Assembly (NCBI GenBank): GCA_947383945.1
Contig: CANDFH010000005.1
Coordinates: forward strand, 1 to 22,790
Length of the DNA stretch: 22,790 nucleotides
DNA from: an uncultured Lachnospiraceae bacterium
Lineage (GTDB): Bacteria; Bacillota; Clostridia; Lachnospirales; Lachnospiraceae
Direction: 5' to 3'
The position numbers and the translations under genes were made by a program. Positions 1 through 133 of this stretch are shown in pieces. How positions within the stretch are numbered: position 1 is the stretch's first letter; each line of letters begins with the position of its first letter. The notes under the pieces were generated by a model. The model saw only the letters and a list, made by a program, of their open reading frames with translations. It had not been told where the DNA came from and did not search any database.

Positions 1-133
1 CGCAAAGTTTCAATGCAACAAACGATTTTCCGGTTCCGGTTGGATGAATAATTGCTGCTTTCCCTGTGGTATTTAGCATGGAAATAGCTGCATTATATGC
101 TGTTTTGTTATGTTCAAACAATTCTATTCCCAT
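1..133 (-). CDS. Superfamily-2 (ResIII/DEAD-like) helicase, N-terminal fragment; the gene runs off the left edge
   Basis: Minus-strand ATG at 131-133 is preceded by GGAAG (revcomp of 141-147). Translation MGIELFEHNKTAYNAAISMLNTTGKAAIIHPTGTGKSFVALKLC carries a Walker A motif (PTGTGKS) in the context typical of ResIII-type helicase N-termini. Not in the ORF track because it is cut by the window edge. Confidence 0.55.
   Translation of the reverse strand, partial: MGIELFEHNKTAYNAAISMLNTTGKAAIIHPTGTGKSFVALKLC

Follow-up and report, generated by a model that had tools for sequence, protein, structure and literature searches.

A helicase fragment at the edge of a Lachnospiraceae contig is probably the start of the leader gene of a phase-variable polysaccharide operon

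The phase-variable capsular polysaccharide loci of Bacteroides combine invertible promoters, the Mpi recombinase, which is a serine recombinase, and the leader genes UpxY and UpxZ. Such capsules are central to gut persistence, phage evasion, and immune modulation in Bacteroides; to our knowledge, far less is known about phase-variable capsules in the equally abundant Clostridia. In Clostridioides difficile, a single tyrosine recombinase, RecV, which is encoded elsewhere in the genome, inverts several short regulatory segments flanked by inverted repeats (IRs) in the switches cwpV, flgB, and cmrRST, and the ON/OFF state of cwpV is set by terminator formation in the leader. Here we describe a locus at the left edge of a 22,790-nt stretch of DNA from an uncultured Lachnospiraceae bacterium (GenBank assembly GCA_947383945.1, contig CANDFH010000005.1, positions 1 to 22,790; "the window"), where the 5' end of a helicase gene lies next to an IR-flanked promoter segment. 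The fragment is very probably where the leader gene of a phase-variable operon for a polysaccharide (capsule or exopolysaccharide) begins. The locus is a Clostridial counterpart of the Bacteroides phase-variable capsule loci, with an undescribed helicase as its leader gene. We found no description of an HA-repeat helicase as a polysaccharide-locus leader in the literature searched, the coverage of which was incomplete, so that a prior description is possible.

The likeness to the Bacteroides capsule loci extends to several features. An IR-flanked promoter segment stands directly upstream of a long polysaccharide operon, several such loci occur per genome (seen in relatives), and the first gene is presumably a regulatory one and not part of the biosynthesis. 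Most loci have no adjacent recombinase, which implies action in trans, and the biosynthesis genes vary by strain behind a conserved 5' gene. The differences are as clear. The host is a Gram-positive, Clostridium-related bacterium; the sites are 9-7-9 palindromes with a locus-specific spacer, a layout typical of tyrosine recombinases; and the leader is an approximately 1,000-aa superfamily 2 (SF2) helicase with HA repeats, not the NusG-like UpxY that serves as leader protein of the Bacteroides capsule loci (PMC7819879). No UpxZ equivalent was identified. A tyrosine recombinase that serves several loci from elsewhere in the genome, as proposed here, would recall RecV. Unlike in the RecV-dependent switches, which have other site sequences and other targets, the promoter itself inverts in the proposed switch, and the putative terminator consists of a recombination site together with its fixed flank.

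The minus strand of the window from position 133 to position 1 has a stop-free translation of 44 codons that starts with MGIELFEHNK, includes HPTGTGKSF (MGIELFEHNKTAYNAAISMLNTTGKAAIIHPTGTGKSFVALKLC), and reads past the left edge. The initial annotation had taken this stretch for the N terminus of a ResIII/SF2 helicase with a Walker A motif, and that assignment was borne out. The 44-aa fragment contains the Walker A motif GTGKS and matches Pfam ResIII with an E value of 8.1e-5 and 23.0 bits (curated cut-off, 22.5 bits); full-length relatives score E = 1e-11 to 1e-15. We found the full gene by using a neighboring 395-aa protein as an exact-match handle, which led to L085, a 76.9-kb contig from this strain. 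It matches window positions 1 to 1100 with 100% identity and reaches 8.4 kb further left. The helicase in L085 is 1,014 aa long and has ResIII and Helicase_C domains followed by HA (PF03457) repeats. Its motif I is GTGKS, and motifs II (DEFH), III (SAT), and VI (QQIGRA) lie off the window. In a sibling strain (L091), the helicase is intact at 1,085 aa. The translation, the ResIII match, L085, and L091 together identify positions 1 to 133 (minus strand) as the first 44 codons of an SF2 helicase and of the first gene of a polysaccharide operon. Because the ATPase motif residues are invariant among the 45 homologs compared, the motor is probably active. Multiple HA repeats lie C-terminal to the motor both in the L085 helicase and in protein P0005, and an AlphaFold model (pLDDT of 78) has helical repeats from about residue 450.

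The initial annotation had also predicted that the helicase opens a restriction or defense operon beyond the window, and had proposed extending the contig leftward in search of methyltransferase, nuclease, or PLD domains. The extension provided by L085 contained sugar transferase, epimerase, and GT4 genes instead. On the same strand, the helicase is followed by a 70-aa open reading frame (ORF), a polyprenyl glycosylphosphotransferase (EPS_sugtrans/Bac_transf; E = 4e-67), an NAD-dependent epimerase, a GT4 glycosyltransferase, a hexapeptide (Hexapep) acetyltransferase, a second GT4 enzyme, and further genes; the seven same-strand downstream genes are either polysaccharide-synthesis genes or unannotated. 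No methyltransferase or nuclease is encoded in the 8.5 kb downstream of the helicase in L085, and none was found in L091 or L088. A surface polysaccharide is assigned as the product of the L085 operon by annotation only, from the EPS_sugtrans priming transferase, the epimerase, the two GT4 enzymes, and the acetyltransferase.

Comparison of L085 with L091 suggested how this operon varies. The two strains have the same flank and the same switch, and their helicase genes are 95% identical over the first ~2,660 nt. Behind the 1,085-aa helicase, however, L091 carries DegT, Bac_transf, and GT2 genes, and the glycosyltransferase operons (L085:1-8557 and L091:1-6584) are unrelated, with the homology breakpoint in the last (3') HA repeats. 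Since helicase homology ends in these repeats and the downstream genes differ, the polysaccharide genes have been exchanged between strains behind a conserved leader gene. In a Logan contig (L001:259-1524), the helicase homolog has decayed to three ORFs of 44, 145, and 123 aa and the downstream teichoic-acid or polysaccharide genes are intact; loss of a functional helicase gene apparently need not entail loss of the operon.

The DNA between the helicase and its neighbor carries the hallmarks of an invertible segment. The pattern GTAATGAAG-N7-CTTCATTAC occurs exactly twice in the 22.8-kb window, at positions 155 to 179 and 680 to 704, compared with 0 occurrences expected from shuffles. The helicase-proximal IR arm (149 to 184) contains the core site GTAATGAAG-TGGATAC-CTTCATTAC, in which 9-nt palindromic half-sites enclose an asymmetric 7-nt spacer, and the helicase-distal arm (675 to 710) contains GTAATGAAG-GTATCCA-CTTCATTAC. 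The 36-nt arms are 92% complementary, and the two spacers are exact reverse complements. Tyrosine recombinases require matching spacers for recombination, and reverse-complementary spacers are thus what a spacer-dependent recombinase needs for inversion. The proximal core site is 21 nt away from the start codon and the extended arm 15 nt, close to the 20 bp first estimated. This 21-nt leader (134 to 154, minus strand) contains a ribosome-binding site (AAAGGAAG) at positions 140 to 147, has no T-run, and is too short for a promoter. In all seven loci of the group that comprises the window and its six closest relatives (group A), the proximal site is likewise followed by a ribosome-binding site and an ATG 21 to 24 nt away.

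The segment between the arms (185 to 674; 490 nt) is 66 to 72% identical to segments upstream of helicase paralogs in a Lachnospiraceae metagenome-assembled genome (MAG). Its best-conserved part in group A is a promoter block. The promoter is of the sigma-70 type (TTGACA-17-TGaTACAAT; 11/12 positions), lies at positions 589 to 617 on the plus strand, with 57 nt between it and the segment's distal end, and is directed away from the helicase, as it is in the six relatives. A promoter-like site that faces the helicase (531 to 503, minus strand) was considered as an alternative ON promoter and rejected, as this stretch is not conserved in the seven-way alignment. For transcripts made in the OFF orientation, the 9-bp hairpin of the distal site and the fixed flank CTTTTTTTT form a terminator-like element (680 to 713, plus strand). 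A T-run follows the distal site in six of the seven group A loci (the window and five of the six relatives), and in none of the seven is there one after the proximal site. A small hairpin (AAATCCCTT / AAGGATTT) between A- and T-runs (190 to 224), placed immediately inside the proximal site, keeps its position in group A and may be an insulating terminator. The segment also contains two copies, on the minus strand, of a tandem 11-nt direct repeat: TTTGCCGTCAA-ATTCGCCGTCA at positions 224 to 245, an invariant block in 7/7 group A segments, and TTCGCCGTCAG-ATTCGCCGTCA at positions 369 to 390, 145 nt from the first. The repeat has the form (A)TTCGCCGTCA twice, and both copies stand upstream of the promoter, inside the invertible segment, as is also the case in the L005-L012 and L018-L071 inner segments.

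Genomes related to that of the window contain such segments in both orientations. Inner segments are inverted between L040 and L050 (94% identity over 369 nt), between L009 and L031/L034 (95%), and between L028 and L029 (87%). Among the 35 loci scored, the best sigma-70 promoter lies in most cases 32 to 60 nt from one segment end and faces outward; it points toward the helicase in 10 and away from it in 25. Because the conserved promoter points away from the helicase, the assembled state of the window is predicted to be OFF. The junction predicted for the inverted state of the window's own locus is matched base for base by the first 140 nt of a sibling-strain contig (L092; GCA_948584295.1, CAPBHV010000290.1): the reverse-complemented sigma-side flank is joined through the site to the end of the segment that lies at window position 185. 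The sigma-side flank is consequently present at both sides of the invertible segment in L092, in opposite orientations, and the spacer at both sites is TAGATAC, which differs from that of the window strain. This junction reflects either a mixed population or a short-k-mer assembly artifact. The original proposal that inversion would place the helicase under the strong promoter agrees with the same geometry found both ways in relatives and with the junction in L092. Scans of Joint Genome Institute (JGI) metagenomes gave no match to the inverted junction or to either junction; the species is apparently absent from that collection, and the scans are hence uninformative.

These features suggest how the switch would work. 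A tyrosine recombinase encoded elsewhere in the genome would exchange strands within the 7-nt spacers and thereby invert the segment. In the OFF state, transcripts would reach the distal-site hairpin and the fixed U-run and terminate, since the fixed flank outside the distal site is a T-run. In the inverted state, the promoter would stand ~57 nt from the proximal site, and transcripts would pass the hairpin there, which has no U-run, and extend over the ribosome-binding site, so that the helicase and the operon would be expressed. Inversion would in this way shift the promoter from a dead end to a 100- to 130-nt leader that reads into the helicase, because only the distal site has the T-run and the ribosome-binding site and start codon follow the proximal site. 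Locus-specific spacers would stop paralogous loci from recombining with one another while one recombinase serves all of them.

We scanned one genome per species (GTDB genomes) for relatives of the helicase N terminus, with a small alignment as the query, and kept the best 80 of 581 loci. Helicase ORFs in the related loci are 700 to 1,200 aa long and have 5 to 9 HA repeats. Copy numbers per genome reach at least 7 in one Lachnospiraceae MAG; cultured Lachnospiraceae isolates from the mouse gut have 2 to 4 copies, and Dorea sp. 5-2 has 2. In the protein database, more than 5,500 clusters (90% identity) match at E <= 1e-20; where names are given, they are "Helicase associated domain protein," "DEAD/DEAH box helicase family protein," or "helicase." We surveyed the three ORFs after the helicase at ~50 loci, 143 proteins in all. 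Families found included Bac_transf (35), DegT aminotransferase (25), GT1/GT4 (12), NusG (11), epimerase (10), Polysacc_synt_2 (6), and UDP-glucose dehydrogenase (4), and no methyltransferase or nuclease was among the 25 most frequent. The ORF immediately upstream (n = 49) encodes a tyrosine recombinase (Phage_integrase) in 20 cases and a serine recombinase (Resolvase) in 3. Two further contexts with precomputed Pfam labels gave the same picture.

An inverted-repeat search of the 1.5 kb upstream of each helicase revealed three site families: the window's GTAATGAAG-N7-CTTCATTAC, TTTCGCAAA-N9-TTTGCGAAA, and ACATAAT...ATTATGT. Window-type sites occur in 25 of the 80 loci. They number 48 in ~1 Mb, and 44 of these are no more than 1.2 kb upstream of the start of a helicase; the sites pair through reverse-complementary spacers, and the paralogous loci of one genome all differ in spacer. 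Motifs related to the 11-nt repeat (GCCGTCAAAATTCTGGTCA and CTCCGCAGTCA) occur in other site families, with none in the ACATAAT family. We considered the tandem repeats as arm-type sites of the recombinase and do not favor this assignment, as a related GTCA motif is also present in the TTTCGCAAA site family. Where the window's type has the 11-nt repeats, ACATAAT-type segments (L028, L029, L054, and L069) have a long palindrome, CACCCTCAxTGC ... GCAxTGAGGGTG, which is conserved, together with a terminator-like hairpin; they thus differ from the window's type in internal architecture. In size and layout they resemble two groups of invertons, 139 and 125, which, according to PMC11892184, are segments of 200 to 250 nt in Clostridia of a defined gut community, have an adjacent tyrosine recombinase, and flip as judged by read mapping. 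The main text and supplements of that report, as far as seen, contain no mention of helicases with Clostridial invertons. A helicase homolog that immediately follows a 367-aa tyrosine recombinase is broken, at L003:1920-2010, by a perfect inverted duplication of 29 nt (CTGGACATGATCCATAGGAAACCTTTCCC ... GGGAAAGGTTTCCTATGGATCATGTCCAG). Coverage of the contig is low, and the duplication could be an artifact of assembly or a small hairpin insertion.

Several observations weigh against the interpretation of the window's fragment as the start of a switchable leader gene. All full assemblies of the species are in the OFF orientation. No recombinase gene is present in the window, nor could one be assigned. 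The site hairpin is weak (9 bp with 3 G-C pairs; approximately -10 kcal/mol). The join in L092 involves an exact repeat of 27 to 30 nt, and a k-mer of that length or less could create it without reads. The helicase of the window's own strain stops early, at 1,014 aa compared with 1,085 aa in the sibling strain, and is followed by the 70-aa ORF, which led us to suspect that its C terminus may be damaged; the 70-aa ORF may be a frameshifted remnant. The missing recombinase, the uniformly OFF contigs, and the truncated helicase could together mean that the segment is a relic without a cognate recombinase and that the operon is permanently silent or otherwise driven. We consider this improbable in view of the sites themselves: both 25-nt core sites are perfect and their spacers exactly reverse complementary, and this holds in the sibling strain with its TAGATAC spacer as well, where a different but matched spacer implies a compensated change at both sites. 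The inverted junction in L092 also speaks against a relic, and loci of this site family as a rule have no recombinase next to them. Window-type loci mostly have unrelated genes upstream (S8 peptidase, LacI, a JetD-like protein, or DegT), with an adjacent tyrosine recombinase in only two. An Xer-like gene neighbors L010 and an integrase gene neighbors L022. Because most of these loci have none adjacent, a recombinase that acts in trans is likely the rule for the window's site type, and the window's lack of one is typical.

The same data bear on what kind of helicase this is. A Res/HsdR-like motor of a phase-variable restriction-modification or antiphage defense operon would account for the ResIII match of the fragment and for the restriction enzymes LlaBIII and SauUSI at the top of the Foldseek list. 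PADLOC 2.0 returned weak, partial-profile matches to mREase_IV (55 bits) and PbeA (48 bits), NCBIfam returned dnd_restrict_1 (44 bits), and PMC12191111 mentions one fusion of an HA domain to a PLD nuclease. All of these matches, however, are limited to the generic motor core and fall far under family cut-offs (44 versus 600 bits for dnd_restrict_1). The helicase shares with the ResIII restriction motors (type III Res, the type ISP enzyme LlaBIII, and SauUSI) an SF2 motor with ResIII and Helicase_C, and differs from them in its low identity (12 to 16%), its HA-repeat C-terminal half, its polysaccharide context, and the lack of a nuclease or methyltransferase domain or partner. Neither the 1,014-aa nor the 1,085-aa protein contains a nuclease or methylase domain, the only domains found being DEAD, ResIII, Helicase_C, and HA; no restriction partner is present in the 8.5 kb downstream in L085; and the survey of ~50 loci yielded no methyltransferase or nuclease among its top 25 families. 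The defense-system finder that had been suggested, run as PADLOC, matched none of six neighboring proteins and the helicase only through partial motor-core hits. Given the polysaccharide content of the operon, the lack of PADLOC-positive neighbors, and the confinement of matches to the motor core, we regard the restriction or defense reading as refuted, with a very small residual probability. Smaller still is the probability of a housekeeping, RadD-like DNA-repair helicase in a conserved core context with its own promoter, the alternative that the initial annotation had named against itself. Weak similarity to RadD in sequence and fold and the core genes in the rest of the window (DnaE, UvrC, FtsH, and PyrG) would fit it. 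The NCBIfam RadD score, however, is 42 bits against a cut-off of 720, the family is multicopy and always at the head of polysaccharide operons, the downstream genes are swapped between strains, and the start codon is only 21 nt away from the site.

The function of the polysaccharide-operon helicase is less certain than its context. Foldseek searches of the PDB matched generic SF2 double-stranded DNA (dsDNA) translocases at 12 to 22% identity (LlaBIII, SauUSI, RadD, XPB, RIG-I-like, FANCM, and CSB), and a PDB sequence search likewise returned only generic SF2 motors and gave no functional discrimination. Because the fold matches only such translocases, structure favors neither a role in transcription nor one in DNA transactions. 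Genomic context was more suggestive. A NusG paralog directly follows the helicase in nine Lachnospiraceae loci and stands further downstream in a tenth (L064), and NusG is fused to the helicase C terminus in Dorea sp. 5-2 and in five protein clusters of 67 to 99% identity. In Firmicutes, LoaP and other specialized NusG paralogs head polysaccharide or polyketide operons, and LoaP acts on intrinsic terminators of the hairpin-plus-T-run type (PMC7819879). The relatives that have a NusG paralog after or fused to the helicase resemble LoaP loci in that it lies at the head of a polysaccharide operon, and the leaders of these loci contain a hairpin and a short T-run. Since NusG adjoins or is fused to the helicase, and by analogy with UpxY and LoaP (PMC7819879), we tentatively propose that the helicase, as a translocase or processivity factor associated with RNA polymerase, acts on the transcription of the long operon to which it belongs. 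We rate this somewhat below an even chance because the window's lineage, unlike LoaP loci, has no NusG gene in its locus (L085); in addition, NusG fusions account for only 5 of the 120 nearest clusters. No helicase partner of LoaP is described in the literature searched.

An alternative site of action is the DNA. The helicase could be an accessory or directionality factor for inversion (an ON-only, FimE-like bias or lock) or an UpxZ-like factor that keeps paralogous loci OFF. Its motor fold is that of dsDNA translocases (RadD, XPB, type ISP enzymes, and SauUSI), DNA binding by HA domains has been reported (Mills 2013, as cited in PMC12191111), and the conserved tandem 11-nt repeats upstream of the promoter are candidate binding sites. 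Each locus has one helicase paralog, genomes have several loci, and nearly all loci of one genome are OFF in assemblies. We nevertheless consider a DNA role unlikely: the fusion and adjacency of NusG point to RNA polymerase, no direct link between helicase and recombinase was seen, and ACATAAT-type segments stand upstream of helicases even though they have no repeat motif. Returning to the proposed action on transcription, a broader and more doubtful form of it is that HA-repeat SF2 helicases constitute a new class of operon-specific transcription factor, namely, ATP-driven translocases that ride on or load RNA polymerase, are encoded by the first gene of phase-variable polysaccharide loci, and are sometimes fused to NusG. 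Such factors might help polymerase past the site hairpin and along the long operon, or might shut down sister loci, with the HA repeats reading the tandem 11-nt repeats, and would be a Clostridial counterpart of UpxY/UpxZ built from an unrelated protein.

In Lachnospiraceae, Oscillospiraceae, and Ruminococcus, the helicase family marks where polysaccharide operons start, often at several places in a genome, and many of the loci examined have an invertible promoter ahead of the operon. The helicase is therefore a simple genomic handle for finding such loci, and their sites follow a testable grammar in which half-sites are shared and spacers are locus specific. The leader protein is uncharacterized and has intact ATPase motifs, and its link to NusG suggests a new control of long operons. 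A likely misannotation is also corrected, in that a ResIII match beside an inverton is no evidence of restriction-modification.

The position at which the window ends recurs in other assemblies. The homologs retrieved with the 44-aa fragment as query were all truncated proteins, 44 to 77 aa long, and at least 14 independent assemblies of the species end within helicase codons 22 to 73, as the window does (contigs L086, L087, L089, L090, L093, and L094 among them). Paralogous helicase genes share ~78% nucleotide identity over their first 180 nt, with exact runs of up to 58 nt, and the contig ends likely result from branching of the assembly graph at this multicopy 5' end. A strain-level swap was rejected as the cause, because two strains stay 95% identical across ~2,660 nt of the gene; repeats shared between paralogs explain the breaks better.

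On the other side of the switch, downstream of the OFF-state promoter and past the terminator-like site, window positions 1020 to 2764 (plus strand) encode an extracytoplasmic function (ECF)-type sigma factor of 186 aa and the overlapping 395-aa protein, which has no family match. Leaky read-through into this pair could make the switch two-way at this locus. In most loci listed, the upstream neighbor is on the helicase strand, and two-way switching would thus not be a general feature. In Dorea sp. 5-2, a JetD_C (Wadjet) gene lies upstream of the NusG-fused helicase (L037:8351-9544); it is a true defense gene and probably a neighbor by coincidence. Also encoded in the window are a BlaI/BlaR-like pair, an ABC transporter, PFK, DnaE, UvrC, FtsH, CTP synthase (PyrG), a GT2 enzyme, two BspA-type leucine-rich-repeat proteins, and a class II tRNA synthetase. 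At positions 3074 to 3939 (minus strand), a BlaR1-like M56 sensor, split into ORFs of 129 and 151 aa, lies beside the BlaI-like repressor. Sibling strains have a single 492-aa BlaR1-like gene (L089:3074-4552), and the window copy is probably a truncated pseudogene. The two leucine-rich-repeat proteins are adjacent (19012 to 21578, minus strand), and one has Big_2 domains; they are probably surface proteins and are unrelated to the switch.

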